Shown: piece by piece, positions 1 to 32,351 of the stretch
Layout of the letters: each line of letters starts with the position of its first letter
Position numbering within the stretch: position 1 is the stretch's first letter
Source of the DNA: Fistulifera solaris
Lineage: Eukaryota
DNA length: 64,000 bases
NCBI GenBank assembly: GCA_030295235.1
Contig: AP026126.1
Span: 62,001 to 126,000 of the forward strand
Reading direction: 5' to 3'
The notes under the pieces: generated by a model
Databases searched by the model: none
The model's input: the letters and a program-made list of their open reading frames with translations, nothing else
What the model was told of the DNA's origin: nothing
Program-made: the position numbers and the translations under genes

Positions 1-3000
1 TGTTAGTAAGAGGGTGTGGCTTGGCCATGCTGTCATCGTTCAGTGTCCAAGAGGCCCACGACATGGCGGCAATTGCGCAAGTGGCGACCTTGCAGTCACG
101 AGTACCCTTTTGCATTTCATGGATGGCTTCCGTACCTCGCATGAAGTCAATAAGATTACCTTGATCAGTGATGAGCAGTTGAAGGTATTGCTGCCGTACG
201 ACAAGATTGAAGAGCATCGTCGGCGTAGCTTGTCGCCGATGCATCCGACGTAAGTGAAAGTAGTTGGTTGGGAATGTCGTTCATTTTAGTAATACTCACC
301 AACACGTTAATTTTCGCAGTCAACGAGGAACCGCACAGGGACCGGATGTGTTTATGCAATTGGTCGAAAGCAGTAACACGTACTATCAGGCCGTAGATGG
401 GATTATCGAAAAGGCCATGGCGGATTTTGCAGCCGTGACAGGTCGTACCTATCATCCCTATGAGTATGCCTATTACGGAACGACGCAGCCAACGGTAGCC
501 ATCATCACCATGGGATCTTCTGTGCGGGTGGTGGATCGTGCTCTGCACTATTTAAAGAGCGAGCAAGCGTGTATGATTGCGATTCGCATGTTCCGTCCTT
601 GGGCGGCCAAGAAATTCGTGGCACTCATTCCCCCGTCGGTACAGCGCATAGCCGTCCTCGATCGCACCCGAGAAGGAGGTTCTCAAGGTGAACCGCTGTA
701 TTTGGATGTTTGCACATCCTTACAGACGCAAAACCGGCACGGCATTTTCGTCGCGGGTGGGCGATATGGGCTGGGAAGCAAGGATTTCACGCCGCGCATG
801 GTGCATTCAGTAATTCAAAACATGCTCCGCAAGGATGTTCATGATATTCAGCATCCTTTCACGGTGGGAATTACGGATGATGTCACTCACTTATCGTTGC
901 CGCTGGGTCGTCCTCTAAGTACGATTGGCGATGAGGCGACGCAATGCGTCTTTATGGATTCGGAAGTGATGGTACGGTGGGAGCGAACAAGGAAGCCATC
1001 AAAATGATTGGGAATTATCAGGAGCAAACTAAAGTGCAAGCTTATTTCGAATACGATGCTAAGAAGAGCAGTGGATGGACGGTCTCGCACATGCGTTTCT
1101 CTCCAGGGACAGAAATTGACGCGCCATTTCGAATTGAAGAGGGCCAGGGAGATTACGTAGCCTGTCACAACGAGTCGTATGTACAAGCCAACAAGTTTGA
1201 TATTGTCAAATTTCTCAAGCGGCGCGGTACTTTCTTTCTAAATACAACCTGCGCTTCCGTTGCGGATCCGAAAGAGCGCTTGGAAGCGTTAGAAGCGCTT
1301 GTTTGTCATAAAACTCTCCGCAAGCTCGCCTTGAAGAATGCCAAGTTCTACATCATGGATGCTGGTCGCCTGGCCAGCAAATACGGACTTCCTGGACGTA
1401 TCAACGTAATCTGCATGTGCGTCTTCTTCCGCTTGAGTAGTGTCTTGCCGTTAGAAGATGCGATCGCGCTCTTGAAATCGTCCATCAGGAAGACGTATTC
1501 GTACAAGGGCGAAGACATCATGCAGAAAAACATCGATCTACTCGATACAGTTGTTAATGATCCGGAAAGTCTGTTACTAGTAGACATTCCGAAAAGGTGG
1601 CGAGCTTTTGAGGATGCAGAACAGGCCTTTTCCAAGCGACACGTGGCACTGATCGATGACGAAAAGGCGCGGCAATTTATGCAAGACATTGGTGATCCTG
1701 TTGCTCGGTTACAAGGAGACGCTATTCCTATCTCGAAGTTCCTTCAAAATAATCTTTTGGGTGGCGTTATGATTCCAGGTACATCGAAGTACGAGAAACG
1801 TAATCCGAATCCCAGCAAAAAGGTACCTGTATGGGAGCCCAACAACTGCACACAGTGTAATCAATGCGTCTTCATTTGCCCGCACGCTGCTATCCGGCCC
1901 TTTATTGTCACGAGAGATGAAGTTACAAAGGCTCCCCATCCCGAAACCTTTCAAACACTTAAGGCAACCGGTGTTGAACTCCAAGGAAAGCGTTACGCAC
2001 TTCAAGTGTCCGTGTTGGATTGTACCGGCTGCAATGCATGCGTAGAAGCGTGCCCCGAAGCTCCAAAAGCACTAAAAATGGGTCCTATCGAAGACTTGCT
2101 TACAACCGGAGTTGAGAACTGGGACTTTGCGATGAAGCTTCCCGAACGAGGCCACTTGGTGGAAAAGAGTAGTGTACGTGGTTCACAGTTTCAAACGCCA
2201 CTTATGGAATTTTCTGGTGCTTGCAGCGGTTGCGGAGAAACACCTTACTTCAAGCTTTTGACGCAACTTTTTGGACAGCGAATGCTGGTTGCGAATGCAA
2301 CGGGTTGCAGTACGATTTGGGAGGTTCTTTTCCATCGAATCCCTACACAGTGAACAAAGAAACGGGACGTGGACCGGCTTGGGCGAACTCCTTATTTGAA
2401 GACAACGCTGGTGCGTTACGATGCTTTTCATAAAGTTTATTTTGCTTGGCGCAAGATCCCCTAACAAAATATTTTTTTCTTGTTGTGCTCGTTATGAAGA
2501 GTTCGGTCTGGGCATGTTTTCTGCGACACAGCACCGCCGAGCTAGACTCGTTGGTTATGTCCAAGACTTTGTGCACCAAATGGAAATCTCACCACCACAG
2601 AATGATCTACTCTCGCAACTGGTTGCTCTTTTACACGAGTGGCTCGAGATCCGTGACGAAAAGTCGGATCGATGCACATTATTATTTGATCATATGGCAC
2701 CTTTATTCAAGTCCGTATTGTCGCAATCGCCTGGAGCTGATTCAAAACTGAGCGATCTGTTACAAAAATATGGTCCGAACGCGACATGTTTCCCAAACTG
2801 TCACAATGGATCTGCGGCGGTGACGGCTGGGCGTATGACATCGGTTTTGGTGGCTTGGACCATGTTGAAGCTTTTGAAGCCAACGATGTAAATGTGTTGG
2901 TGGTCGACACAGAAATGTACAGTAATACCGGTGGACAACAATCGAAAGCAACACCGGCTGGTGCAGCCGTCAAATTTGCCATGGGTGGGAAGCAGCAGAA

Positions 3001-5173
3001 GAAGAAGAGTTTAGGTGAAATGTTCATGACATATGAACACGTTTATGTGGCATCGGTGGCATTGCACAATTCAGCTCAAGTGCTACAAGCTTTTTGGGAG
3101 GCTGATCAACATCAAGGTCCTTCGATTATAATTGCATACGCTCCTTGCATTCAGCAAGGCGTTCGACCCGCCGGCTTAAATGACATGTACGATGAATCAA
3201 AGTTTGCCGTCGAAAGCGGCTACTGGCCACTGTATCGGTTCAATCCAGAGCTCACCAAGCAGGGTCAGAATCCATTTGTCTTGGATAGCAAAAAGTTGCG
3301 AAAAGATGTAACGGCGTTCTTGCAACGAGAAAGTCGCTTCATCAACTTGCGAAAAAGGGATCCAAAAGTAGCCGATGCTCTGTGGGAGCAAGTAACTGCA
3401 GATGTCAACCATAGAATGGACCACTTGCAACAACTAGCCGAAGGCTACAAGAATTTCTCCCATCCCAGTGACGCGAAAATCAAAGTTTTGTTTGCGTCGG
3501 AAACGGGTACTGCGGCTCGAGTGGCGCGTGATTTTGCTAACGCGTGCCCAGATTCAGCCACTGCATCGGCACTTGATGATATCGATATCGACGATGACAT
3601 TAACGGCAAGGTAGTCGTGCTGTTTGTATCAACATGTGGACAAGGAGCGATGCCGCGGAACGGTAGAAACTTTTACCACGAATTATGTCGGCGTACAGAG
3701 CCATTGCAAGCAGAGACGAAGTTTCTTATTTTTGGCTTGGGTGATTCTAGCTACTACTTTTACTTGAAGGCTGCCAGAGATATTCAAGACCGTTTGAGAG
3801 CATTGGGAGCTACCCAATTGTTGGACATGGGAGAAGGTGACGACGCAGCAGAAGACGGTATGGAAGCCGGTTTGCACGACTGGCTGGAACTTGTGTGGCC
3901 GAAGTTGGAAATACCTCCACCGTCCGAGGTGCCGCATATTCAAGCCGTCAATGCCACCTTCTCAAACCGTGCCATTCTTCGACCGGAAGAGGACTGGCAC
4001 GTGCTGGAACAGTACTACCATGGAGTTCATCATGCTGTCAATGCTACAATCATCAGTAATGACTTGATGTGCCGGCCCGATTACAACCGCGACTTCCGAA
4101 GGCTTCGCTTGGCGAAAGCCAACACCGAACTTGAAAATTTCCAGCTGGGAGATGCTTTGGAAATATTTCCACAGAACGACCCAACACTTGTATCGCAGTT
4201 TCTACACGATTACTCACCTGATTTTGGAGAAAATACGGTGGTCCAGCTCCATCAGGCTTTTGGTATACACGGCGAGATATCGTTAGCAGCTCTGTTCACG
4301 AGCATTTTGGATTTGTTTGGAAAGCCGACTAAACACTTTCTGCAAGAGTTAGCAACATTTGCGAAGACTGAACAAGACAAGGCAATTCTCTTGGATCCGA
4401 TGTACTTGAAAAAAGCCGCAAAACAGACCGGAATGACGGTTGCCGATGTCTTGATGCAATTTCAGACAGCGAATCCTGCGCTACCGGCCCTACTCGGGAT
4501 GATTCCGCCAATTAAACCCCGAGCATATTCGATTGCCAGTACCCCGCATGCCAGTCACATTGAACTGTTGGTTTTAATTGATACGTGGTGGTGTGAAGCT
4601 GGTATGAAATATGGCTTGACTTGTAACATGCTTCGCAAGTTGCATCCCAGTAATACGGTTTGGTGTCGGATCCACCCAGGAAGTATGGAGCCCCCTTCGC
4701 CGCAAGATCCAGTCGTATGCGCTGGCATTGGAAGTGGTTTGGCGCCGCATATGGCATTTTTGAGAGATCGCGTACGGGCCGCCGAAGCAGGGGAACAAGT
4801 CGGTCCATTTTCTTTGTATTTCGGAAATCGCTACCGTTCCGATGAGTACCTCTATGAGTCCGAGTTGGCTGAGTATGCTCGCAAACACTCCGAATGGTTC
4901 CACTTGCATGTTGCCTTCAGTCGCGATGATCCGCACAAGAAAGTCTACGTGCAGAATCTTGTGGGTGACACGGACGATGCAAGGCTGTATTTGCGTGACC
5001 AGCCAGGTCTCTTGTACGTCTGTGGAAACCGTCAACTGCCGAAGCCATTGCAACAGGCACTCGTAAAATCCTTTTGTCGCCCGAATCCTGAAGACGAGAG
5101 TGAAGTGTCGAAAGCCATCAAGGCCGTGAAAGACTTGTATCTTCATGGCAAAGCACAACAGGAGGTGTGGTAG
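1..5173 (+). CDS. PNO: Pyruvate:NADP+ oxidoreductase (PFOR fused to flavodoxin and FAD/NADPH-binding CPR-like module); 5' end outside window
   Basis: PFOR motifs: HFMDGFRTSHE, RGTAQGPD, GGRYGLGSKDF, GFGSDGTVGANK, YDAKKSSG, two ferredoxin motifs (CTQCNQCVFICP, CTGCNACVEACP), GACSGCGE, ATGCS, TPP motif GGDGWAYDIG. C-terminal flavodoxin (FASETGTA, STCGQG, GLGDSSY) and FNR module (RAYSIAS, GIGSGLAP, YFGNR, YVCG, terminal W). Introns 250-319 and 2411-2499. One-base homopolymer deletions near 953, 2320 and 2766 join the ORF pieces. Confidence 0.95.
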
Positions 5174-10680: not shown

Positions 10681-11506
10681 ATGGCGTACGTATCCTTAGA
10701 TAAGAGAGCAGAAAAAGAGAGACTCTTGTGGGATGCTTCCCCTCTTTGTTCCTCGCTGTACTTTTTCGCTTCTCATGCACATCACTTTTCTTTTCTTTCC
10801 CAACAATACATCTTTTTCTTAACCTTTTAATGCACAATCCCATTCTATCTTCAACGACGCAAATATATATATATCACAGACTCCCCGGATCACGGCACCG
10901 CCAACGCCGGAAACGCACCATCCACGCATGTCAGGGACTCACCTTTTGTCGTTTTGCATGACCTTTCTATCCTTTGATTTCTTTGCCACTGTATTGGGAC
11001 TAACGATTGTCATTCTGTATACGTGTTCGACTTGTTGGGTGAAACAAACGAACGAATTGTATCGACAACAGCAACCGACCTCGACGGCACTCTTGACATC
11101 TTCCCTCTTGTCGTTTGTGTGCAGTGGTGTCATGTTGTGGTCAGTCTTTGTGATTGCCTTGACGACCGTGTGTGATGAAAAGACTGGTACTGATAACAAC
11201 ACCACGGATACTAACACGACACTGGCACCGCAAGAAGAAGAAGAAGAGGAAAACACTACGGATTATGATTTCTTTTGCAAGAATCGGTCCTGGATTTGGG
11301 CTTTTTCGATTCTTTCTTCCGTCACGTGGTTTATTAATGCTTGTCTGCTAATGTGGTTGTCCACGACGGTTCCTCCGCCACCGCCTCCGCCACGGAGACG
11401 GCAACGGCCGGTGATGTGGGAAGAAGACGGTGATACCGTAGCCGAGACGATGGTAGATGAGAATGAAGAGCGGGAGGATGTGTCGCCCGAAACCGGAATG
11501 CGATAA
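10681..11506 (+). CDS. Hypothetical multi-pass membrane protein
   Basis: ORF 10928-11506 has about 3 hydrophobic helices and an acidic, N-glycosylatable loop. A possible first exon (ATGGCGTAC, 10681-10689) splices in frame to the CAG acceptor at 10879. Confidence 0.6.
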
Positions 11507-11960
11507 ACGAGAATGGCAGAAAATGTACATGATATGACAGTATGTGTCGAACGAGAGATTGAAGCATGTACAACGACGCCGACGATTATTAGAGACCGTT
11601 TGCAATGAATTTGTATACTTCGAATGAAGATTCATCGATGAGTAGCCACAAATCACTATCCTATTCTGCGATGCACATGGTAAAATGCAACGACGTCTTT
11701 AGTGAATTAAAAGGATGCCTCTTTTTGGTCTGGAGAAGTAGTGAGTAGTTACTTTACAATTACAATATCTTATTCGCATCGGCCTACTTCAACGTTTTTC
11801 TCCTTACTGCTTAGCGATTTTCTAGGCTCACGAAGATCACTATGTATACTGCGTTTAGGATGATACTATGACAGAAGAAACAATCTTCACAAATAGCTGG
11901 TGATTACATTTACAGATGCGCTTCACAATAATAGACAAAAATGGCGGTGCCGAAGTATTT

Positions 11961-14901
11961 CTATTCGCTTCGCACTTCGACGCCGTATATTTGTCCTTTC
12001 TCCTTATACAGTACAGAGACCACTTGATCAGCGAGGAAAACAAATCCTTCGCGCTCAATGACATACTTTTTCCGCCGCTTGGCCGCTTTCAAGAGCTCCA
12101 GACCGAAGGCCTCCGCTTCCAAGCGACCACTGAGACTCAAATGGGCATGATTCGATTCAAACTTGCCCGTTCCGAGCTTTCGCACCGTCGGTTTGTTGCG
12201 CGCCATTTTTGTGATGCTGGCATCACCGACTTTGATCGTCGATGTGGTCGTGCACACGCAACTAGGATCCATATCTTCTACACCATAGTTATCCGCGGCA
12301 TCATAGTTGACGGTGTATCCCATGTCTTCCAAGGAAGCCACGGTCATTCTTGACAGCACAACTTTACCCCCTTCGTAGCCCGTCATGGATTCTTTTTTTG
12401 AAACATGTCTTATCCGTGAAGCCACAGCCTTCGAGTGGAATGGGCTTGTCGCACCCAGTCAGCTTCTGGTACTCGGCAGTGGCTTTCGAGGATGCAGTAT
12501 ACGAGCACGACGAGAAGGGAGTCTCCTTGACTAATCCATTTTTCTTCCACAGGGCACCGATTCCATACTGAAAGGCAAACAACAAATTAGATATCATTAG
12601 CTTGCACCAAGCAAAACACACAGCCAAAACACTTACAATTCGACCCATTTCGTGCGTCTGCGTTGGATAAAGAAAGCGACGTTTCGGATGAGATAGGGAT
12701 GTTGTCAAAAGTCAGAGTGGGCGTTTCGGTATTCTTATACTTACAATAACAGACTCGAGCATTGACGAGTCAGCCAAATCATCAATATCGGCACTATCAA
12801 GAGTCATGCTTCCAATCACAGGAATAATTTTACTACCGACCCTTGCCCCATACTCTGCTTGTGAATAGCCCAACACTCCGCTGATAGCATCGATATCGCC
12901 CACCGTTGCGCAGATAAAAATGTCGTCGATCGTGTCAGGCAAACTTTTGCATGTCACACCATCTCGTGTATCGTCGGTAACGGAAAGACCAGGCATATCT
13001 CCAACAATAATGGATCCCCATCGATCGGCAGCCACCACAAATGCATCTTGATACGTCTCATCTACATTGGATAAATCAAGGGTTGTCTCAAAACCGGCTT
13101 CCCTCAAATTACCATCATCGGCAGAAGGTTCACTTGATGGAACCTGGCTTGGAAATACGGTAGGAATGATGGATGGAAATTCCGAAGGCGCAATACTTGG
13201 GCTGAATGTTGCAGTGGGTACAGCAGTAGGAACTACGGTGGTGGTGGGTTCGGCAGAAACACTAGGACTCTGAGTGTCAGCTGATGGTGCCGCACTTATA
13301 CTTAAGCTCGGACTTTCGGTCGCGGCACTTGGACTCTGCGTATCAGTGCTTGGACTCGGTGTTGAGCTCGGGCTTTGGGTGTCAGCGCTAGGACTCTGTG
13401 TACCGATACTAGGAGCTGCAGTGGGAGCGGAAGTCGTTGTTTCAGCCTCGGTAGGGGCGGGACTGGAAGTTTCGATTATCTGAGATGAGGGGGGCGCTGA
13501 CACCAACGTAGACGGTGCAAAAGTCCGCGCGACGGATGGAAGCGTAGACGGAGAGATTACCGAAGGACTTGCTGACACACTGGGAGACGTCGTTGGGCTC
13601 AGTGATATTGACGGACCTGGTGTTTCAGTTGAAATTGCGGTTGGGCTTAGTGAAGGCGCCGGTGAAGCACTCTTCTTCGAAGACTTTTTGCTTGATTTGC
13701 TTGATTTACTCGACTGGCTCTTTTGACCTTTTCCACTTTTCTTGCCCTTGCCTGACTTGTCGCTTTTTTCGCCTTTGCCCTCGCTATTTGAATCGCCCTT
13801 ACCCTTTCCACTTTTTTCGCCTTTGCCTTTGCCGCTACTTTCACCTTTGCCGCTTTTCTTACTTTTAAACTCAGTTGTCGGATATGCTGTGCCTGTTGGC
13901 ATAGCTGAGCTAGTGGGCAGAAGGGTGGGCAAGAGAGTGGGGAAATCGGAGGGGTAGAGTCATCATCGTCATTTGAATCGCCCTTGCCCTTTCCGCTCTT
14001 CTTGCCTTTGGCCTTTGCGCTATTTTCACCTTTGCCACTTTTCTTACTTTTCAATTCAATCGACGTCGGGTATGCTGTGCCTGTTGGGATAGCTGAGCTA
14101 GTCGGCAAATAAGTGGGGTAGTCTGAGGGAGTGTCATCGCTGTCCCTTGAGTCGCCTTTGCCCTTGCCACTCTTCTTGCCTTTAGTCTTGGCACTATTTT
14201 CACTTTTGCCTTTGCCGCTTTTTCTTACTCTTCAATTCAATCGTCGTTGGGTATGCTGTGCCTGTTGGGATACCTGAGCTAGTCGGCAAATAAGTGGGGT
14301 AGTCTGAGGGAGTTTCATCGCTGTCACTTGAATCGCCCTTGCCCTTGCCACTCTTCTTGCCTTTTGCTTTTGCACTCGTTTCTCCTTTGCCGCTTTTCTT
14401 ACTCTTCAATTCAATCGTCGTCGGGTATGCTGTGCCTGTTGGGATACCTGAGCTAGTCGGCAAATAAGTGGGGTAGTCTGAGGGAGTTTCATCGCTGTCA
14501 CTTGAATCGCCCTTGCCCTTGCCACTCTTCTTGCCTTTTGCTTTTGCACTCGTTTCTCCTTTGCCGCTTTTCTTACTCTTCAATTCAATCGTCGTCGGGT
14601 ATGCGGTTGATGTTGGCATCGCTGATCCAGTCGGCAGATAAGTGGGTTCAAATGAATTCGTTGGCGAGGGAGTATCGTCGTCGTCGTGTGCTTCAGCGGC
14701 AGCAAGCTCTATGGCCGCTTTCACTTTCTCCGCAACTGTCTGCTGTAGATGGCGTTGTTGAATGAGCTGCTCGTGCGACGGCCTTGTCACCGACGATCGA
14801 CTCGTGCCTTCGATTCCAACATCTTGACTTAAGTCATATCCCCATGCAGCAGTGAAGGCAATCGTCGTCAGCACTAATATATTTTCGATTGAGCGAACCA
14901 T
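11961..14901 (-). CDS. Leishmanolysin-like (M8) protease paralog A, predicted catalytically inactive, with 58-aa tandem repeats and mucin stalk
   Basis: Signal peptide, K/S/G repeats, P/S/T stalk, AADRW..IIVGD and DDIFIC motifs. Introns 12744-12658 and 12636-12568 flank micro-exon THEMGRI. ESMTG Met-turn and conserved C-terminal VLY.E.G module present; several single-base frameshifts. Confidence 0.8.
13800..14650 (-). repeat. Coding tandem repeat, about 5 copies of a 174-bp (58-aa) unit
   Basis: CAATTCAATCG recurs at 14581, 14407, 14233 and 14052, with a degenerate copy near 13867; unit PTYLPTSSGIPTGTAYPTTIELKSKKSGKGETSAKAKGKKSGKGKGDSSDSDETPSDY. Confidence 0.9.
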
Positions 14902-15538: not shown

Positions 15539-17701
15539 TTATCTTGTCACCATGACTGTGTATTTGTAGCCATTTTCCATGTAAAGTACAATAATGATTT
15601 GATCACCAATATATTGATCAGCTTGCTCATCCTTGAGGTAGGCGTTCTTCCACTCGTGGTTTGCGTCCAAGATAGCCATTCCGTGGGCCCTAGCAATCCG
15701 CTGGCCTTCTTGGCTGAGCGGAGGTCTGAGACTAGAAGTACTGGTTGTGCTGGTGTGCGATATTGGAAGTTTACCCACGTTATGGTAGGTAAACACTTCA
15801 GGTATGTCACTCTCTGTAGTGCCTTGCAGTTCTCTCCGGTTACAAACACAGTCTGGGCTCATCTTGGACGTATCGAACGGATCCGCTCTCGAGTAGTCCA
15901 CAGTGTACCCAAGGTCGTCTAAGGCGGCGACAGTTAAAATGGATAATTCTAAGCCGTCTGTGCTAAATCCTGTCATGAGTTCACCCAAAAGCAATCTTCG
16001 TCCCAGTGCCCACACTGCGTTCCCGCGCCAAAATTATCTTCCACTGGTATAGAAGCATCGCATCCACTGAGCAATCGATATTGTTCGCTGGCTCGGGAGT
16101 CATAACTGTATGGACATGGAGAAGTTTGCGAAGCAAGATTGTTAACCGCCCACAAAGTGCCGAATCCATACTGAAAACAAAAGGAACTAGGTAAGAGATT
16201 ACCACGTTCATTGATTTGTAACGTTCGTGCTGCTGAAAACTTACCACATGCGCCATTTCGTGTAACTGCAAATCGGTTAGTAAAGGAATCATTGTGTTAG
16301 TGCGGCAGAAATCCATTGTATGACAAAACATTTGTCAACGTACAATCAGGCCTTCTAAAGTGCCAGCTTCAAGTTGTAAGTCCATGTCAGCCTCATCGAA
16401 ATTCATTCCGCCAACCGTAACTGTGATCGTATCGCCGAAGCGAGCAAGTTGAGGGCCTTCAAAAATGAAACAGAGTGTGAGTAGGGTCCATTCGAAGCCA
16501 AAGCAAGTCAAAACGTTTGACAAACCTGCTGTACCAAGCACTCCGAAAGGTCCATCAATAGGTATGATGGAGGCACAAATGAAGATATCGTCAATGACAT
16601 CAGGTAATGTCGAAGGATCGCAATTCAAACCGGGACTGTTCAATACGTCACTATCGACAACCAGGTCTGGCATATCCCCGACTATCACCGTGTCCCAGAT
16701 CCTCGCGGCGTCAATAAATGATGATTGAAATCGATCGGGGACTTGTTCAAGACCGAGTGTTGTATCGAATTCTGAAATTGGTACAGGTGTTGGTTCTGGG
16801 CTCGTGTTGTCCACAGAAGGAGGATCCGTGAGTGCTACTGAAGGTTCGGATGTTCCAGGTGGCGAAGGAGCGACGGTAGAAGTAGGTTCTAGGCTTGGCG
16901 CTGCCGTAATGGTTGGGAAGGAAGTTATCGTTGGTGCGGGACTGGTAGTGACTTCTTGAGAGGGAGCCCCGGTCACTGCTTGCGACGGTGCCGTTGTGTC
17001 TGTGGATGTCGGAGAAGTAGTTGCCGATGGTTCGGGCGTTGTAGGACTTGCTGTCGGACTTTCCGTGTCAATCGATGTGGGAGTAGCCGTGGAAGTTGGT
17101 TCGGCCGTCGTAGGACTTGCTGTTGGACTGGCGGTTGTTGGAGCTGTTGTCGTATCGGCTTGTGGAGTCGCAGTCGGTTCAGAAATAGCGGAGGGCGAAA
17201 CAGTTGGTGAAACGACTGGCGTCGGTACAGGAACTGGGGCTGGGACAACAACCGGACTCGGCACAGGAACATTGGGTGCTGCGACGGGCATTTCCGTCGA
17301 TATCGACACGATAGGACTAGGAGAATGCACAGTAGGAGCCGCAGTGGGTTCATCCACGGATTTTTTCGAGCTCTTTTACCGCTACCTTTACCCGATGATG
17401 GCATAGTGGGTGATGGTGATGCAGAGGCCGATCCTTTGCCTTTGGACGTTTTCTGACTTGTCGTTTTGGAAGTTGTTGGCGAACCTTTTCCGCCCTTGCC
17501 CGAACTTTCCGTTCCTTTCCCTCTTGTTGTTTTCTTACTTGTGGAGTCTGTTTTGGTCGATCCCTTCAAGTACATCAAGTCATTGACAACCTGAACGTTG
17601 AGGTTGCGATCAACACGAAGTGATTCTCGCACATGCCGGGCTTGTGCCGCGGAAAAGCTCGACACGGTCAAGAGAACTGATAACAATCGTTCGGCCTTCA
17701 T
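15539..17701 (-). CDS. Leishmanolysin-like (M8) zinc metalloprotease paralog B
   Basis: Signal peptide MKAERLL..., RNL, K/S/G segment, PT stalk; introns 16525-16457, 16343-16266, 16244-16171; micro-exon LHEMAHV; CGHWDE third His; ELMTG. Confidence 0.88.
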
Positions 17702-18150: not shown

Positions 18151-20289
18151 CTACCTCTTCACCATCACAGAGTATTTGTACCCATTTTCCATGTAAAGGA
18201 CAACAATGATCTGATCACCGACATAATGTTCCGCCAAATCGTCTCTCAGATACGCTTTTTTCCACTCATGGTTGGCATTTAAAATGGATAAGCCGTGCGC
18301 TCGTGCGATTCGATTTCCCTCTTCGCTGAGTGGCGGTTTGTGCGATCGTAGATGCGCGTCAGATGCCCATTGCGGAACGTTGCCAACATTTTGGTAAGAG
18401 AAAATGCCAGGGTCATGGCTACCTCTCAACTGTCTCCGATTGTTGCAGACGCAACTCGGACTCATCTGGGACGTATCAAAGGCAGTCGCTTTCGAGTAAT
18501 CGACTGTGTAGCCCAGGTCTTCTAAAGAAGCTATCGATAAAGTGGACAACTCCAAGCCATCGGAACTAGAACCTGTCATGAGTTCACCCAAGAAACAATT
18601 TTCATCCCAGTGCAAACATGCCGTTCCTGCACCAAATTCGTCTTCGACCGGGATGGGCGCGTCGCAGCCGCTGAGTTTTCGATATTCGTCGCTGGCACGA
18701 GAATCCGATTTGTATGGACATGGAGCTGTTCCCGCGGCAAGACCATTTAAATCCCACAATGTACCGAATCCATACTGGATATAAAGGAAAATTTGAGTGA
18801 GAAAACATTGTACGTCAAGGAATGAATTGGACAAGCTATTTGCAACTTACGACATGGGCCATTTCGTGCAGCTGACGATTTGTTGAAGCAGGTACAGAGT
18901 GTCAGAATCTTGGTTGAGAGCATTGCAATATGATAGCACTTCAAGGAACTTACAATCAAGCCTTGCAAAGTACCTTCTTCCCGCTGAAGATCCATATCAG
19001 CTTCATCGAAATTCATAAAGCCAATTGTAGAAGTAATCGTATCTTCAAAGCGGAAAAAAGTTGGCCCGGCTGTCCCCAGGATAGAGTTAGGCCCGTCTAT
19101 CGGCTGCACTGAAGCGCAAATGAAGATGTCGTCAATAACGTCTGGTAATGTCGTTGTATCGCAATTCATATTTGGGCTATTCATTACGGAAGCGTCAACC
19201 ACAAAGTCCGACATATCTCCAACGATGACGCTGTCCCATATTGCTGCGGAATTAACGAATGCTGATTTGAAGCGATCAGCTACTTTGTCTAGATTCAGAG
19301 TCGTCTCAAACGCTCCGGCGATGATTGGAGGAGGCACCACAGGGCGTGAAACGGGAGGAGCTACAGGACGAGGCACAGGCCACGGTACAGGAGGAGCTAC
19401 TGGTCGTGGAACAGGTCGCGGCACAGGGGGTGGCTTGGGGGACCGTGTTGGTGTTTCGATCGGGGAGAGAGTCGGAGGCACAGTTTCGGGTTGCGGAGCA
19501 GCCGTGGGAGATGCAGTTTGTTTTGCAGGAAAAGTCGGCATGCTCGTAGGCGAAGGCAGAGGACTGGGTGTTGTAACAGAAGAAGCCAGCGGGCTTGCTG
19601 TAATAACCGAAGATGCCAATGGGCTTGATGTAGATACTGGCGATGCCACTGGACTTGGCGTAGAAGATACACAATCCGTCTCAGGATAGTCTTTGCTCAT
19701 CTTTTTTGTTTTGCCCAAGTAATGATGGTCTTTGGAGGGTTGTTGCGTCGGCAATACTACAGGAGACGAGGATTTGCCTTTACCTTTTCCTTTTGAATGC
19801 GACTTGGACTTCTTTTTTGGTGAAGAAGTGGGCGATGTTGTCGGTTCGTCTACTTCCTCGAAACTCGGACAGTCTTTGGACTTTTTGGTCGTTGTTTTCT
19901 TCTTTTTATCCTTGTCCAATTCTTCTCGGCCTTCCAGTTTTTTTTGACTTCGAGCTTTTTTGTTTCGGTACCTTTCTGTTTTTACCCTTGCCCAATTCAT
20001 GACGATCATCAAGCTTCTTCGATTGCGACGTTGATTTTGGTGGGGATGATACAGGTTGAGTTGCGACCGGTGTCTGTGTTGGCACTCCAGTTGGCTGTGA
20101 GCTCGAGTCTTCATCTGACTTGAGTTCTTTATCGACCGAATGCGATTTGGATTTTTTCAGCCGCCTTCGGCGAACGGAATCGTTTTCTCCGCGTTGCACA
20201 GCATAGCCACTTCGTCTTGTGGCCCTGGCAGAAACCGACGACAAAGTCGTGAGGGCAGAAAGGATCAGTAGAGCGTTACCAGGTTTCAT
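18151..20289 (-). CDS. Leishmanolysin-like (M8) zinc metalloprotease paralog C
   Basis: Signal peptide MKPGNALL..., RRL, Lys-rich and PV/PR-rich stalk; LGTAGP; micro-exon LHEMAHV (18851-18871); CLHWDE; ELMTG. Confidence 0.88.
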
Positions 20290-20698: not shown

Positions 20699-23134
20699 TT
20701 AGGTATCAGACCGAACAACGACGGACTTTACCCCATCATCCCAATACAACACAACAATTACCTTGTCACCTAAGTATACAGAGTTGCCGCCCAAAGCAGC
20801 TGCTCGAAACGATCGCAACTGGGAACGTCCATAATCGATCGCATTCAATCTTGCCGCCGTGGTGGTTTCTGTCTGTAATTGTCGTCGCTCGTTGAAGAAA
20901 ACACCCGCGTTCAAGTTGCGATTCACATTACAATTGCAACTGGGCGCCAACAGAGAAGACGGGTAAGGCGTAGCTTGACTGTAATCTACTGTGTAACCTA
21001 GATCCTCCAAACCCGCTACGGTGATGCGTGAGAGTTCTTGGCTACCTGTGTTGACACCCGTCATGAGTTCGGATTGAAAGCAATCTTCATCCCAATGCAA
21101 GCATTTCGTTCCTTCAGCTCCGTCAGTCTCAATGGGAACAGCTCCATCACAACCACTCAAGGCCCGATACTCTTCACTGGCCTTGGAATCATAGCGATAC
21201 GCACAAATGTCGGTGTTTTCCACCAAAGAGTTGGGTCCCCAAAGCGTACCAATACCGTACTGCAGAATGAATCAGATGTAATTACCGCCAAAGTGAGACA
21301 AACATGTTGCCACAGGAAATACATGAACTTGGAATTGAGGTTACTCACCACATGAGCCATCTCATGAAGCTGAACGAAGAGGGAGAACGATCAGTGAGTT
21401 AGGGTTACGGTTGTCAGACGTTTTATCCGCGCGTCAGTGTGCACCACAACTAGAGTTAGGGATTAAGACAGAAAATCTAGGGTCGAACTTACAATTGTTC
21501 CAGCAAGTTGACCATTTCCATTTAAAATATCAATGTCTGCCAAATCAAACTGCATATATCCCACAGACGTCTGCAAAATTTCTCCACTTCGAGCTGCGAA
21601 AAAACGAATAAGCATGAGTTTGGAGCTAAAAAAGGAGGAAAAATCGATCAAAAATTTTGCCGTTCAATACAACAAAACAAAGCCATCTCTTCATTTAAAA
21701 CAAACCTAAAAGTGGGCCTGCTGAACCGAGAATACCGACTTCCCCGTCGATACTGGGGAGGCTTGAACAAATGAACACATCATCGATAACATCAGGAATA
21801 GTGGATGTATCACAACGTGACCCTGCCGTAGCGCGGTCGGCATCGGTCATGACAAAGTCCTGTAGGTCACCCACAATGACTGTATCCCACCGCGAGGCGG
21901 CGTCGATAAACACTTGGCGATACGCTTCGGGCACTTGATCAAGATTGAGTTCGGTGGTAAAGCCTCCTTCGACACGAGCGAGAGTCGGAGCGCTTGTCGT
22001 AGTGGGACGCAAACTAGGGGGAACACTTGTCGTACTGTTGCTCGTGGGGAAAACGGAAGGAGATTCCGAAGTTGTCGGCGGCAAAGATCGGGAGGGCTGC
22101 ACTGATCCAAAAGGCTGAGCAGTTGACGAAGGTGCTCTCGATGCGGACGGCAGCGCGGTAATGGAAGGAGCTACCGACACGGAAGGTTTACTCGAAGCAA
22201 TAATGTTTGAACTCGGCACCAGAGAAGGCGCCAAGGATGACGAAGGCGAAATACTTGTCGGTACTTGCGAAAGCGTCGGATCCTCGCTTCCGGTTCCTGC
22301 TGACGTTGGTAATTGGCTCAAAGTCGGAGAAAAGCTCGAAGTCGGTGCACCGCTCAAAGCATTAGGCGCGAGTGACGGAGGAACTGAAGACGATGGGGGA
22401 ACTGTTTGAATCTGCGATGATGGAATCAAAGAAGGAGCGATTATGGTTCCAGTCGTAGGGAAAACAGTTGTTGTGGGTCCTTCAGTACCAGCAACCGGAG
22501 GAATTGTGGGCACACCACTCGGGGCCGGAGAAATCGTAGGAGCCGGCGAGACTGTAGGATTCACCGTGCGAGCAGCAAACACACTCAAAAATATTTCCGA
22601 ATAGGTTCCTTCGGGTTTGGGCACCCAACCTCCGGTATACGTTTCAAGGAAGTTTTTGGCTGTTTCTTTAACCTTCTCGGCCGTTACCGGCTGGGCTGTC
22701 TGTTTCTCCACGGGGGCGCGTGTCGGAGCCAGAGTCGTGTCTTCTACTTTCGACCCGACTTCTTCTTCTTCTTCTTTCTCTTCCTCTTTGCTTGCTGCGG
22801 GCTTTTCATTCGCAGGCTTTTCGTTTGCTGGTGACTCGCTCGTGCTCGGGTCACGTTCGCCCGTAAAGATGTTGGTGAAGAGATTAAAGTAGCTACGACC
22901 CGACTCAAATGACGAATCATCAATAACTTCTTCGGTTTTTGTTGTGTCATCCAAAAGCGATTGCAAGTTGAATACATTGAAAAGACGTCGATTGCGGATA
23001 GGTCCTTCCGAATCTCGTGCTGTTGGCACGCTCACATCGTTTCCTTCGCGATTTGTTGGCTTGTCAGCACGCAATAACTCTGCCGAGCTCGGTTGTAGCA
23101 AGAAAGGAAGTAAAAGACGTAGAAGAGGCTTCAT
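20699..23134 (-). CDS. Leishmanolysin-like (M8) zinc metalloprotease paralog D
   Basis: Signal peptide MKPLLRLL..., RRL, acidic segment and S/T/P stalk; intron 21705-21594; micro-exon LHEMAHV (21349-21369); CLHWDE; ELMTG. Confidence 0.88.
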
Positions 23135-25508: not shown

Positions 25509-28149
25509 TTACGACCAATCTGTCACCAACACAGATTGAACTCGATCGTTGTCCCAATACAATACGACAATCATCTTGTCTTCCAAATAAATTCGATTGA
25601 GATCTCGGCTGATCACGTTGGCGGATCGGGCCGATTTTAACTTGGCTCGTCCGTATTCGATGGCATTCTGTCGAGCCTCTTGACTGGCAGTAGATGGTCT
25701 TTGGACTCGAGTGACTTGATCCTTAAGACTTCGGGTGTTTTCCGCGTTGCAAACACAATTCGGTGACAAGAGATTGGCGGAAAAGGGTGTCGCTTGATTG
25801 TAATCGACTTGATAGCCCAAGTCCTCTAGGGCTGCAATGGAGATACGAGAAAGTTCGAGATCACCTGTGTTGACGCCCGTCATGAGTTCGGATTGAAAGC
25901 AATCTTCATCCCAATGCAAGCATTTTGTGCCCTTTTCTCCGTCTGTTTCAACGGGTACTGGACCATCACAGCCACTTAAAGCCCGATATTCTTCACTGGC
26001 ACGAGAATCATATTTGTACGGACACGAATCTGAATCTTCTGTCAATTTATTCTCGGACCACAAAGTTCCAATTCCGTACTGTGGATTGAGATGTATTGGT
26101 TAGAGAAACACGATTCCTGAGGTTCAGGCCACATTTTTGTTTCAGCGATTACTTACCACGTGGGCCATTTCGTGTAACTGATGATGCGAAACGCCAAAAC
26201 AAGAAACGATGGTTAGTATCCTGCGCAAGTCAATCAATTTTCTTTTTAACCTTTCTTCATGACAAACACACTTACAATAGTACCAGCCAGTTGCCCCTTC
26301 TGCTCCAGAATCTCAACGTCAGCAAGGTCGAACTGCATATATCCGACCGAGGTTTGCACAAAGTCGCCGAAGCGGGCAAAACTTGGCCCCGCTGATCCTA
26401 AAATGCCCCCCACATTATCAATCTCCGGGAGGGAGGCACAAATGTAAACGTCGTCCACTACTTGAGGTATTGATGCAGGATCACAACGAAGATCTGGAAT
26501 AGAAAGCTCTGCTTCGCGAACGACATAGTCCTCCAAGTCACCGACAATCACGCTATCCCATTTGGCAGCTGCGTCGATAAAGATTTGCCGATATCTCTCA
26601 GGCACTTCGTCCAGATTGAGGGCTGTTTCGAAAGATCCTTCTACCTCATTTTGTGTTGTAGCGGTTGTCGGTGCAGCACTGTTGGTCTGATTGGAGGGAG
26701 AAATAAGTGACGGCACTGCCGAAGGCGCATTGGAAAGGACAGGACTAGACGAAGAAGTATTATTGGGGACTGCAGACGGTGCATCTGATGCAGTAGAGCT
26801 AGAAGTTGGCGCTATAGTCCGATTCGTCGGCGTTGAATCATTTGTCGTTGGAATCACGGACGGCGGAGATGAAGCCGTAGAGTCAGTGGTGGGTGCCACA
26901 GTCTCATTACCTGGAGAGTTCACTGTGGGCACCACCGATGGCGACTCCGACAGACGAGTTTCAGTCGGTGCGGGCGTCCTTTCTTGGGTGGAAGCACCGG
27001 AAGGCGCAAAGCTTGGCTGCAATGAGTCCGTTGCCGCACCAATCGGTGCAGAACTTGGCAAACTCGTGTTTTCGATCGTAGGCGTATTTGATGGATGACC
27101 TGAAGGTGCTTGCGATTCTATAGTGCTCGGTCCTGCCGTTGGGTTCTGAGTAACTTCTCTGGGCGGAGAAGTCTGTGTTGTCGTTGGTGCGGCAGTAGGC
27201 ATAAGCCCAGAAGCTCTCGTTGGAGAGGCAGTTTGTGATATCGTGGGCTTCATCGAGGGTAAAACTGTTACTGAAGTCGTTGGCGCTCTCGTGGGCAATG
27301 CGGTACGAGAGCCAGCTGGTGCTTGAGTTACGTTTGGATTTCCTAAACTTGGAGCTCTTGTTGGTCCATCATCGACTTCGGAACTCGTCGGGGAAGCAAA
27401 AGGCCCGTCCGAAAGAATATCACTTTCATTAGCTGTCGGTGCAGGCGTTTTATTTCCACTGTCGGGCGACTTCGATGGAGAGAGACTACTAGCGGGTATC
27501 ACAGAAGGACTTTGGCTTGGAGCAGGAACATCCAAATCGTCTTCCGGTGACTTGTCATCTGAATCCTTATGCTTTTTCGACTTCTTAGAGTACTTTATTG
27601 ACGTTTTTGAGGAATCAACAGACAAAGACGACTTTGACTTTTTGGATTTCTTGGACTTCTTAGAGTCTTTCTTTGATTTCTTTCCACTCAATGATGAATC
27701 ATTGTCATCACTGTGATCCGCATTATTAGTATCGCTGTGATGCTCTTCTTCGTCTTCGGTATTTTCCCCTTCCCCTTGTTGACCTTTGCCTCCTCCTTTT
27801 CCTCACTGAAAATAGACTCCGTGTTGACGGACACTGAATGTGATATATGTGAATGTGATGCCTCTTTCGTAGTCGATCTCGCTGGCTCCGATTTCTTTCC
27901 GCTTTTCCTTCCTTTCGCAGATGGTACGTAGGGCTCAGATGGCGACGGTGAAGTCCCATCCGTTGAGATAGAAACAGCTATTTCTTCGTCATTTGCATCG
28001 TAAAAAGACGTCTCTTTACCTGACGATTTGTTTCTTGTCTGTTGCCGTAATCGTTGTCGTCGTTCGCTATTGTTAATTGTTTTTCCTGATGATAATACTA
28101 GTAGCAGAGAAAGAAAGATCAACGCCAATTCAGCTCTCCTCGACCGCAT
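25509..28149 (-). CDS. Leishmanolysin-like (M8) zinc metalloprotease paralog E
   Basis: Signal peptide MRSRRAELAL..., KKSK repeats, long PT/PS stalk; LGSAGP; micro-exon LHEMAHV (26157-26177); CLHWDE; ELMTG. Confidence 0.88.
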
Positions 28150-28629: not shown

Positions 28630-30782
28630 TCAAGGATCTGGTGTGACTAAGACAGACTGAATGCGCTCATTTTTGTCAAAGTAGAGTACGAGGACAACTT
28701 TGTCTGCCAAAAATATCCTTCGCGGATCGGTGTTCCTCGACATGTGCTCCGCCGAGCGGTGATTATCTTGAAGTTTCTTTTTTCCGTATTGAATGGCCTG
28801 CTCGCGCTCTTTATCACTCGCATCATAACGAAGGGAGCGACGATTATCTTGCCAATGAAAGCTCATTGATACACCATTGGAAAGTTGGAAATCGTTTTCG
28901 TGGACTTGATTGGCGCCGCAGACACAACTCGGGTCCATTTGATCCACAGAATAGGGATCCGCCTGGCTGTAGTCCACTACGTATCCCATATCCTCTAACG
29001 TTGCGATTGAAAGACGAGACAACTCTTGATCGCCTGTGTTGACGCCCGTCATCAGCTCGGTTTGAAAACAGCTTTCAGCCCAATGCAAGCACGCCGTACC
29101 CGCACCGCCGGTCGTTTCAATAGGTACGGCTGTATCACAGCCACTCAGAGCACGATATTCCTCGCTGGCTTTTGAATCATACGAATACGGACAATCGGGA
29201 GTGTCGGTGACCAATCCATTTTGTCCCCAGAGAGTTCCTGTGCCGTACTATATTTCGTTTTAAACCGTTAGAGACGACGAGGACAAGTGAGCAATGTCAG
29301 ATTTTAAAACACAACTCACCACGTGTGCCATTTCATGCAACTGTCAAAAAGACAAAGAGCAGAGGGAGACTGAGTAGAAAATCTGGGTCAACTTATCACG
29401 CAAGGGGTTGTACTTACGATAAGACCGTCTAATCGACCTTGCGTCTCCAGCATTTCAATATCCGCGAGATCGAATTCCATATAACCCACCGCTGTTTGAA
29501 CAAAATCTCCCACTCTTCCAAAGATAGGGCCGGCTGAACCAAGGATAGAGTTAACACCGTCAATGTTTGGAAGTCTTGCGCAAATGAAGACATCGTCGAC
29601 AATTTCGGGCAAGCTATTACCGTCACAAAGGAGCTCTGGATTGGTTCGATCTTCTTCAAAAATTGGATAGTCTTCTAGATCACCGACAATGATGCTATCC
29701 CATTTGGCCGCAGCATTTTGAAAGACACGATGATACTGAGGAGGCACTTGATCCAAATTGAGCGTCGTTTCAAAATCTTCGGTGGGCAAAGCAGCAGGAA
29801 CGGCCGTAGGAGCTTCAGCCGCGGTTGTCGGGGGATTCGTTGAAGATGAAGTTGCAGCAGTAGGAGTACTCGTGCGAGATTCATCCAATGCAGTAGGTAG
29901 ATCTGTTGAGGACGCGATCGCAGCAGTTGGAACGCTCGATAAAGATGTTTCAAGTGAAGTTGGCGCACTTGTTGAAGACGGGCCCAACGGAGTAGGTGCA
30001 GCTGTCGCATCAGTGTTGGAAACAGTCGGTGCACTTGTCGAAGAGACGTCTACAGGAGTTGGTAAAGTTGTCGAAGCTGAATCAAGAGGCGTCGGTGCAC
30101 TCGTCGAGGGGTCGTCTACAGGAGTAGGTGCATTTGTCAAAACTGGATTGGAAACAGTCGGTGCACTCGTCGAGGAGTCGTCTACGAGAGTAGGTGGAGT
30201 TGTCGAAGCTGGATCGAGAAGCGTCGGCGTACTCGTTGGAGCTTGTTGCGTTTCCATTGTCGGACGTGATGTAGGAGCATCTGTAGATGACGTTGGAGGT
30301 GCTGCAGGTGCTAAAGTCGTTGCAGGAACTCGTGTAGGAACCGCATTTTCCATTACAGGAGCCAGAACAGGAGTTTGGATCGGAGCTGTTTCTTCTGTAA
30401 CAGGTGATAATGTGGGCGCAGGACTTAATGTCTCTTTGCTACTGCTTTTCTTGGATTTCTTTTTTCCTTTCCCTTTCCCCTTGGATTTCGAGGAGGAGTA
30501 TTTGCTCCCCTTTCCTTTGCTGCCTTTTCCTCCTTTCCCTTTCGACTTTTTGCTACTAGATGACTTTCCTGCTGCCGTTGTTTTCGTACTGCTATGGGTC
30601 ATATCATGATGCATGGCCGGCGGAGTAATCGAAAGAATATATTCATGCTCCTGGTCATCGAAATTGCCATACGGTGTCGTGGCCTGCAAAGAGCGTTTTC
30701 TTACATGATGAGTTTCACTAGGATGGCGTGTGCTGGCCCATGTGGCTGTCACGAGCAGCGACAAAATTGAGATGGATTTCAT
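28630..30782 (-). CDS. Leishmanolysin-like (M8) zinc metalloprotease paralog F
   Basis: Signal peptide MKSISIL..., RSL, KGKG/KSSK block, STSAPT repeats; LGSAGP; micro-exon LHEMAHV (29320-29340); CLHWAE; ELMTG. Confidence 0.9.
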
Positions 30783-31118
30783 TTGAACCTGACTTGTATG
30801 AACGTGTTTCTTTTATTGCCGTTATCATTGTCTGCTTTCAATGGTAGGCGTTTGAAATGGGTCGAAAAAGTGAACGGTGCGTTTACTGCAAAATTCGAGG
30901 CGTGGCCGGCGTGCTTCAATGTCAGTCGCGCGCGGGTCTACGTTTCTGTCATCCTGAACCTTAATCAGTATACCAACTTTTATGGCAGCCGCAGAAAAAC
31001 TTCGTACCGATGCCTACTTTTTCTGCTATACAGCAGCCAACGAAAAGGATCGCTGGCTTCTTGAATATTCTTCAGTACCTTAACAACAAAAGCAAATACA
31101 TTCCTTCCTTTTGTCAAC

Positions 31119-32351
31119 ATGAAGATTCCTAATCACATTGTTGTATCATTCCTTCTTTCACTTTGCGTCAGTGAAACAAGTGGCTTCATTGCGGTCGCCC
31201 CGCCGCGGTTCTCGTTGACGTTAAAAGCCGCGCGCAATAATACACCCGAGGACAGCAACAGCAAATCGGCGGCCCTCCAAAGTGTTTTGAATCAAATTGA
31301 ACGCAGTTACGGACGTGGTAGCATTTTACAATTAGGAAATGCGGATCTTCCAACGGTCGAATGTCTTAGTACCGGTGCCTTGACGTTGGATATGGCATTG
31401 GGAGGACAGGGTTACCCGAAAGGCCGTGTGGTGGAAATTTACGGCCCCGAGTCGTCGGGAAAAACCACATTGGCGTTACATGCTATAGCCGAATGTCAAA
31501 AGAAGGGAGGTACGGCGGCTTTTATTGATGCGGAACATGCCTTGGATTTGTCGTATGCACAAGCGTTAGGAGTGGATGCTTCGCAATTGTTGTTGTCGCA
31601 ACCGGATTCGGGGGAAATGGCGCTGGATGTTTGTGATCAGTTGATTCGCAGTCGTGCGGTCGATATTGTAGTCATTGATAGTGTTGCGGCTTTGGTACCC
31701 CGTGCTGAACTGGAAGGCAGCATGGGCGATGCGCAAATTGGATTACAAGCCCGTCTCATGAGTAAGGCCTTGCGCAAGTTGACAGGAAGTTTGCATTCCA
31801 GTAATGCCATTGTTATTTTTCTCAATCAACTACGCCAGAAGGTAGGGGTCATTTACGGTAGTCCTGAAGTCACTGCCGGAGGCAATGCGTTGAAATTTTA
31901 TGCTTCGGTTCGACTGGATACTCGGCGACAAGAAATTTTGCCTCCGAACGCTGGAATTCGCATCAAAGTGAAAGTTGTGAAGAACAAAGTTGCTCCGCCG
32001 TTTCGTGTGGTCAACTTGGATATTCTATTTGGAAAAGGCATTGATAGCTGGGGTGATTTGGTTTCGGTGGCGACTGAATTGGGCGTATTAGAGCGCAAGG
32101 GGAGCTGGTACGCTTTGCAAGGCAATAATCTGGCACAAGGAAAACAAAACTTGGTGCAAATATTACAAGAAGACGAAGTATTGCAAGAGAAATTACAAAG
32201 CGCTGTACGAGAAGCTGTTGTCAAGAATATCAAGATGGGTGATACTGGCTCCATCAGCAAGAAGTCGTCCGCAACTGCGTTGTCGGAACCCGTTGGTGAT
32301 ATGGAAGATGGTTCTTACGCGATGGAAGAAGAAGAATTGGATGTTTTTTAA
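31119..32351 (+). CDS. recA: Plastid-targeted bacterial-type RecA recombinase
   Basis: Walker [69 protein letters not shown]-terminal signal peptide ends SG-F and is followed by a transit-like peptide (complex-plastid bipartite leader). Intronless. Confidence 0.97.

Follow-up and report, generated by a model that had tools for sequence, protein, structure and literature searches.

Gene A, a leishmanolysin-like copy without two zinc ligands in an eight-gene array on contig AP026126.1, is probably a maintained pseudo-peptidase

The window analysed here is a stretch of 64,000 nucleotides of contig AP026126.1 (assembly GCA_030295235.1), in which eight leishmanolysin-like genes of peptidase family M8, named A to H, form a head-to-tail row on the minus strand. 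The subject is the terminal copy, gene A (11961-14901), in which two of the three zinc-binding histidines have been replaced. We put the probability at about 0.7 that A is a maintained M8 pseudo-peptidase and not a decaying pseudogene, because it is transcribed, it is spliced, its frame is open through the M8 domain and the C-terminus after correction of one homopolymer, and it is under selection. Judged from its residues, A is almost certainly non-catalytic. A first-pass annotation of this DNA had read A as a non-catalytic gene kept for a structural or binding role; the maintenance part of that reading is carried by transcription, splicing, an excess of synonymous differences and a related open frame, P0151, while the role itself and the loss of zinc go further than these results do.

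The array and the lost ligands

The DNA of the window is of eukaryotic nuclear type, with short GT..AG introns. A search for the pattern HE..[HR], together with tblastn queries taken from G and H, brought out the eight copies; B begins at 15542, C at 18154, D at 20702, E at 25512, F at 28633, G at 32619 and H at 35302, all on the minus strand, and A is called terminal because an unrelated plus-strand gene (10823-11506) lies beyond its 3' end. The family is M8 within the metzincins, on the strength of Pfam matches, a profile alignment to leishmanolysin and a fold match. Pfam assigns the last exon of G (33.8 bits) and that of H (43.7 bits) to Peptidase_M8 (PF01457), whose cut-off is 21. A profile made from the last exons of 6 paralogs, run against PDB sequences, finds leishmanolysin 1lml_A at E = 1.2e-4, aligning C.HW..C..ELM to the leishmanolysin segment GSHIKMRNAQDELM and the family pattern G.GT.C.HW..C...ELM to GP63 GGAGSAGSHIKMRNAQDELM, which is the segment of the third His and the Met-turn, with the third-His column of the family on the GSH of 1lml. 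The profile was needed for this, the C-terminal exon of G as a single sequence having no match among the PDB sequences. The fold match comes from P0078, an intron-less library homologue folded with 37 sequences to a mean predicted local distance difference test (pLDDT) score of 76.5, most of residues 90-320 scoring 90 or more; the best match of the model is 1lml (E = 5.3e-10), with matrix metalloproteinases next. An ESM Atlas search with copy G returned weak M8-labelled clusters only, at most 0.88. The homology of A itself to the family is seen in tblastn of the G and H pieces, which reach A with E = 1.2e-24 and 7.8e-31, and the metzincin/leishmanolysin fold predicted for A is taken from the model of its homologue P0078. 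Leishmania major GP63 (PDB ID: 1lml) resembles the family of A in a catalytic domain where HExxH, the distant third His and the Met-turn all align, but it is an active zinc protease, whereas A lacks two ligands and has other flanking domains, and identity at the level of the homologue is ~18%.

The active-site helix of A is encoded in a micro-exon of 21 bases (12637-12657, minus strand, as are all features of A). Preceded by cag and followed by gtaagt, it reads ACG CAC GAA ATG GGT CGA ATT from 12657 to 12637, or THEMGRI, where the other 7 copies have LHEM[AG]HV; the CGA codon at 12640-12642 places Arg at the second zinc-binding His. The segment that should bring the third His is shortened to EGCGFTDKTC (12403-12432), the others having the longer G.GT.C[GLS]HW..C, and a Phe codon (12418-12420) occupies the column that is His in 7/7 other paralogs, with 7 residues missing upstream of it. 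At 12856-12873, LGYSQA replaces LG[ST]AGP, at a position that is a beta-strand in the P0078 model (163-171). The first-pass annotation had named all three of these changes, and each holds up: the Arg in the sequence, the absent third His in the alignment of the eight paralogs, and all three in assembled contigs that show no other letters there. Its third site lies 6-23 bases beyond 12850, where it had ended the feature. It had also counted LGYSQA as a sign of lost function; the change is real, but it carries less weight than the histidines because two library homologues with all three His, P0078 and P0084, read LGYASP at the same site.

What A has kept is also clear from the alignment of the eight paralogs, in which it retains all 8 cysteine columns, the first His, the Glu, the Met of the Met-turn and the C-terminal module. 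Here too the earlier description is accurate, with 8/8 cysteines, the Met of ESM, spliced joints for the splice sites, and the module all in place. The combination of Arg and Phe at the two His columns occurs in A only among the 8 copies. Compared with an active M8 peptidase, A does not have the histidine pair of HExxH and does not have the third zinc-binding His, and does have the Met-turn.

A wider comparison used 37 aligned library homologues, picked from 42 that have HExxH and at least 120 residues downstream of it. Those left out were P0033 and P0145 (very long), P0094 (intron read-through), P0142 (an odd insert) and P0119 (reason unstated), and no library homologue was dropped on account of its histidines. 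In 37/37 there is no variation at the second His, the third His or the Met; as the second His was a criterion of selection, the independent result is the third-His column only. Conservation in at least 86% of the library homologues marks 48 columns, of which A retains 38 and B-H retain 43-48. The 10 losses in A are IDG to IDA, the A of LG.A to S, His to Arg, one Gly, the deleted GT, His to Phe, Trp to Thr, Glu to Lys and Leu to Ser. Apart from the Gly, which varies also in B-F and H, these columns cluster at or around the metal site, and the remaining core is intact.

The micro-exon has a wider distribution. It is common to A-F, with the pattern cag/NNN CAY GAR ATG GSN CAY GTN/gtragt, and beyond A it lies at 16245-16265, 18851-18871, 21349-21369, 26157-26177 and 29320-29340 in B to F in that order. 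G and H are without the second intron and hence without a separate 21-base micro-exon. Library homologue P0094 has HELAHV followed by an apparent read-through intron at the place of the micro-exon, which suggests that this exon may occur outside the present genome too. A further intron stands directly after LG[ST]AGP in B (16457-16525), D (21594-21705) and H (36139-36210); that of B is 69 bases long, in frame and free of stop codons, and its retention would add 23 residues.

Transcription, reading frame and selection

Four public runs (X1-X4), from one study and labelled 'RNA?', provided contigs that were aligned on 11500-13965. X2-X4 are taken to contain RNA because of spliced joints and a poly(A) loose end, and X1 has the unspliced form, which is DNA or unprocessed RNA. 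The joint 12567>12637 (X2, X3 and X4) takes out intron 2 (12568-12636, 69 bases, GT..AG) and the joint 12657>12745 (X3) takes out intron 1 (12658-12744, 87 bases, GT..AG), both with CT..AC ends on the plus strand, and the letters of the micro-exon are carried by loose ends in X2 and X4. From these joints and loose ends the message is spliced with the micro-exon included, so the expression that the first-pass annotation had left to be checked is present in the X2-X4 contigs. A joint that would skip the micro-exon, the event to whose permanent form the first-pass annotation had likened A, would be 12567>12745; it is listed in none of the X1-X4 contigs, in which rare forms are dropped. X3 record 18 spans 12207-12972 across both joints with 0 other letters. 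The changed sites are likewise covered with 0 other letters, the Arg codon by X1 records 3 and 4, X3 record 18 and X4 record 26, the Phe codon by X2 record 11, X3 record 18 and X4 record 24, and LGYSQA by X1 record 4, X2 record 13, X3 record 18 and X4 record 27.

The frame of A changes at three places in the assembly. The one inside the M8 domain is an A7 homopolymer (12393-12399), one base too long, between ...CFKK and ESMTGY, where the real reading is CFKKESMTGY. One base of this run is omitted in 24.1 of 24.1 in X1, 19.3 of 19.3 in X2, 9.99 of 9.99 in X3, and 6.7 + 4.8 of 11.5 in X4. Because 4/4 runs omit one base, the frameshift is an error of the assembly, and the M8 domain reads through in frame; once the base is removed, the frame is open through the M8 domain and the C-terminus. 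The earlier statement that the changed codons are not homopolymer artefacts is therefore sound, since the contigs restore no His and the sole frameshift inside the finding is this error. The other two changes are in an A-run at 14220 (A5, against A4 in other repeat units) and a C-run at 13951-13952 (C4, where C5 would restore ...TPSDFPT). The predicted product of A, 927 amino acids with no stop, is a read-through with the extra bases at 14220 and 12393 dropped and an X at 13951-13952.

A has a protein identity of 24-46% to B-H, at which synonymous sites would be saturated. A closer comparison is with a second A-like copy in the same runs, 90-95% alike, which is either an allele or a paralog of recent origin. 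Its first intron is not that of A, the joint being 12659>12736 (X1), and it carries an in-frame insertion of 6 bases behind 13795, in the lysine-rich part. It shares the deletion in the His segment, because X4 record 25, a variant contig, runs across this segment with 4 other letters and with the homopolymer as its sole gap. Differences between A and the second copy were counted among the best-supported 40 of 123. In the C-terminal part (12000-12206) 15 of 19 differences are at third positions and 15 are synonymous, against 6.0 expected; in the lysine-rich part (13602-13924) 13 of 21 are at third positions and 14 are synonymous, again against 6.0 expected. The expectation places the same kinds of change at random positions within the region, and 0/5000 trials reach the observed count in either part.

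A third sequence of this type is P0151, a protein of 193 amino acids from a 6915-base contig at NCBI, which is an open frame 91% identical to the last exon of A. It reads CSFTDKTC, with the third His absent and the F, T and K replacements common with A, followed by ELMTGY. P0151 and the second copy are unlike at several positions, which brings the number of A-type sequences to at least three. A quick-method tree was built from the 8 paralogs together with P0151 and 21 library homologues, with the Shimodaira-Hasegawa-like approximate likelihood ratio test (SH-aLRT) as its only support measure; in it A and P0151 are sisters (99) inside the clade of the window, on a stem of 0.73. As the two are sisters and both lack the third His, its loss predates their split. 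The distance from the inner node of the clade is ~0.8-0.9 to A and 0.86-1.06 to B-F, and with root-to-tip lengths so alike the A lineage is not faster than its intact relatives. A has thus been under purifying selection after the residue loss, as indicated by the synonymous excess, the open frame in P0151 and a branch that is not lengthened.

Several points weigh against the view that A is a maintained pseudo-peptidase. The exons of A have no PF01457 match of their own. The contigs give no level of expression, may hide rare isoforms and come from that single study, and the frame changes at 14220 and 13951 fall beyond or just at the limit of the region that the contigs were aligned to, where X1 has loose ends at 13877, 13919 and 13954. 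The synonymous excess is computed from a partial list of differences, and of the active-site changes of A the second copy is seen to share the shortened His segment. Searches for relatives were sparing in their results: the C-terminal 143 amino acids of A found no orthologue among longer proteins, nor did the N-terminal exon; a metagenome scan with the C-terminus of A gave 240 pattern matches, none confirmed; and an exhaustive search with the N-terminal exon gave 648 matches, the top-ranked full-length ones 42-47% identical, with no close orthologue. These searches found no relative closer than P0151, and the conservation that they show is within a narrow lineage. Finally, that A is without catalytic zinc and peptide cutting is read from its residues: with two of three ligands gone, it should not hold the metal or cut.

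Possible roles and competing explanations

The mechanism that we prefer, tentatively, is that A is a secreted binding protein tethered to the cell wall or matrix. A would be secreted, and its dead metzincin domain would serve as a binding module for what the active paralogs recognise; the lysine-rich repeats and the Ser/Thr/Pro-rich linker would hold it at the cell surface or wall, and A would be a non-cutting wall or matrix protein, not an enzyme. Tethering to the cell surface is suggested by a signal-peptide-like start and 6 lysine clusters. The probable signal peptide, recognised by eye in the translation, is MVRSIENILVLTTIAFTAAW (14842-14901). The lysine-rich repeat region (13650-14600) is made of units of KSKKSGKGETSAKAKGKKSGKGKG, an acidic stretch and a P/T/Y-rich stretch, with a 174-base unit repeated 3.9 times at 13968-14646, and the linker follows at 13102-13649. 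Counting a cluster as at least 5 Lys in 14 amino acids, A has 6 and the parts of B-H that were read have 0-3, in agreement with the expansion of K-rich repeats described for this copy from the start.

Non-catalytic ADAMs act by binding and not by cutting, and mitochondrial processing peptidase alpha forms an obligate heterodimer with its active subunit. The ADAMs (M12; ADAM11, 22 and 23) are like A in having the histidines of HExxH replaced and the Met of the Met-turn kept (PMC11266112 Table 2), and they are extracellular, as A is predicted to be; they are animal transmembrane proteins with disintegrin domains, whereas A is of M8. The peptidase alpha subunit (M16, HxxDR) shares with A a His to Arg change and the position of an inactive paralogue beside an active one (PMC11266112), but unlike A it has an inverzincin fold and is intracellular. 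The same review of metallo-pseudopeptidases covers M1, M12, M13, M14, M15, M16, M24 and M41, and leishmanolysin is not mentioned in its available part (PMC11266112). The closest parallel within the family is the inactive GP63 (M8) groups of Trypanosoma cruzi (PMC11957388). They are like A in family, in forming tandemly amplified sets, in missing an essential active-site residue and in being judged inactive (PMC11957388). In contrast, they are glycosylphosphatidylinositol-anchored surface proteins of a trypanosomatid parasite, whereas A belongs to a free-living eukaryote with spliceosomal introns and has two ligands lost together with a loop deletion, an active site in a micro-exon, lysine-rich repeats and a different C-terminal module. 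The dead-enzyme principle is hence not new, pseudo-enzymes being common and inactive M8 proteins being described in T. cruzi, and A is an added example. It is a clean one, having intact and dead copies side by side in one array, with a loss older than the divergence of at least two of the sampled sequences, and with expression and selection both obtained from public data. A literature search found no paper joining 'pseudoprotease' with 'leishmanolysin'.

A narrower form of the tethered-protein mechanism, in which a cell-wall protein, possibly one associated with biosilica, has taken on the dead M8 domain as its binding or scaffold part, is doubtful. A would then reach the wall by way of its pentalysine-type repeats, and a ligand from the wall or matrix would sit uncut in the former active-site cleft. 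The pentalysine clusters of diatom silaffins and cingulins are defined as 5 Lys in 12-14 amino acids (PMC9650480), a count that the 6 clusters of A reach while alternating with P/T/Y-rich stretches, and the likeness is one of composition only. Leishmanolysin-like proteins have been noted in a diatom secretome (PMC9054022). The papers returned by a search on frustule, biosilica, silaffin and cingulin had no mention of leishmanolysin, and in a proteome preprint serine protease domains were the only protease mention, with no link between M8 and biosilica. If the host is a diatom, a dead protease domain joined to silaffin-like Lys repeats would make A a candidate wall-associated binding protein. 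The short introns and the presequence of the RecA gene in the array would fit a diatom or another alga with a complex plastid. If the wall-protein reading is true, the array would contain a transition from protease to structural protein, with the loss written in a 21-base micro-exon.

The main alternative, though an unlikely one, is that A acts on its active neighbours as a decoy or regulator, binding substrates, inhibitors or enzymes and so tuning extracellular proteolysis. A keeps the core scaffold of the cleft, in the first His, the Glu, the Met-turn and the disulfide cysteines, and it shares the array with 7 copies that hold all three His; regulation of active relatives is moreover a role given to pseudo-peptidases (PMC11266112). 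The active-site strand and loop have been remodelled, through IDG to IDA, LG.AGP to LGYSQA and the shortened His loop, which argues against a simple retained binding of substrate.

That A is a decaying pseudogene whose mRNA is noise seems improbable. Such a gene would account for the three frame changes in the window, for the lost catalytic residues, for exons that fall below Pfam detection and for the lack of an orthologue outside a narrow lineage. However, the one frame change that reads could test proved to be an assembly error, and a conserved gene of the PFOR type in the same window has the same kind of homopolymer break. Decay is also at odds with the synonymous excess against the second copy, with a branch that is not lengthened, with 38/48 conserved columns retained, and with an open frame of 193 amino acids in P0151, even though P0151 and A separated after the His loss. 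The assembly has errors of homopolymer length, so frameshifts here are not to be taken as pseudogenisation without reads.

Arginine cannot ligate zinc, and this counts against an A that is still active. An active metallopeptidase holding its metal by the first His, the Glu and, for example, the Asp of FTD is highly improbable: A still has the first His, the general-base Glu and the Met-turn, with an Asp two residues after the Phe, but two of three ligands are lost, the third-His column is His in 37/37 aligned homologues, and GP63 loses its activity when the Glu of HEXXH or either of the two His is mutated (PMC11957388).

Gene layout and neighbouring genes

By translation, A runs from a start codon at 14899-14901 to a stop codon at 11961-11963. 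Downstream of the signal peptide, repeats and linker, the N-terminal half of the M8 domain (FETTLDLS...LESVI) occupies the last 116 codons of exon 1 (12745-13092). The last exon (11964-12567) encodes the second half of the M8 domain, including the Met-turn ESM (12384-12392; ELM in the family) with its Met kept, and then the C-terminal module. This module (11964-12140) has ~60 amino acids, a helix and a beta-hairpin, and is common to all 8 copies. Its pattern, ..YG...L....Y.GD..VVVLY...G....V.V, is found in all 8 copies and in library homologues (P0078 residues 350-410). No Pfam family at E up to 10 matches the module beyond rows at chance level, and the model of the module of A (mean pLDDT 70.1) has no PDB fold match at E <= 0.001. 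Nothing supports a PepSY-like fold for the module.

At the other end of the transcript, cover of A by contigs of X2-X4 ends at 11931-11947, and the 3' untranslated region of A is accordingly short. The poly(A) loose end of X4, at 11759, is that of the plus-strand gene 10823-11506; the two transcripts are convergent, with ~170 bases between 11759 and 11931-11947 that have no cover in X2-X4.

Homopolymer breaks are found elsewhere in the window. The PFOR or pyruvate:NADP oxidoreductase-type gene (264-5173, plus strand), with the Pfam families PFOR_II, POR, EKR, Fer4, Flavodoxin_1 and FAD_binding_1, breaks frame in a T-run at 940-960, inside ...QCVF/YGFGSDGTVGANK, a break of the same kind as in A. 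Copy B has a frame change in a T4/G3 run (15986-15990) between ...HWDEDCF and GELMTGF, where one base is probably missing from the assembly because CFLGELMTG stands at this place in C, the paralog nearest to B. The window gave no match to an Rfam family and no tRNA. The array itself is interrupted between F and G by a bacterial-type RecA gene (31065-32351, plus strand; Pfam RecA, 406.7 bits), which has a signal-peptide-like start and a product that is probably targeted to an organelle.

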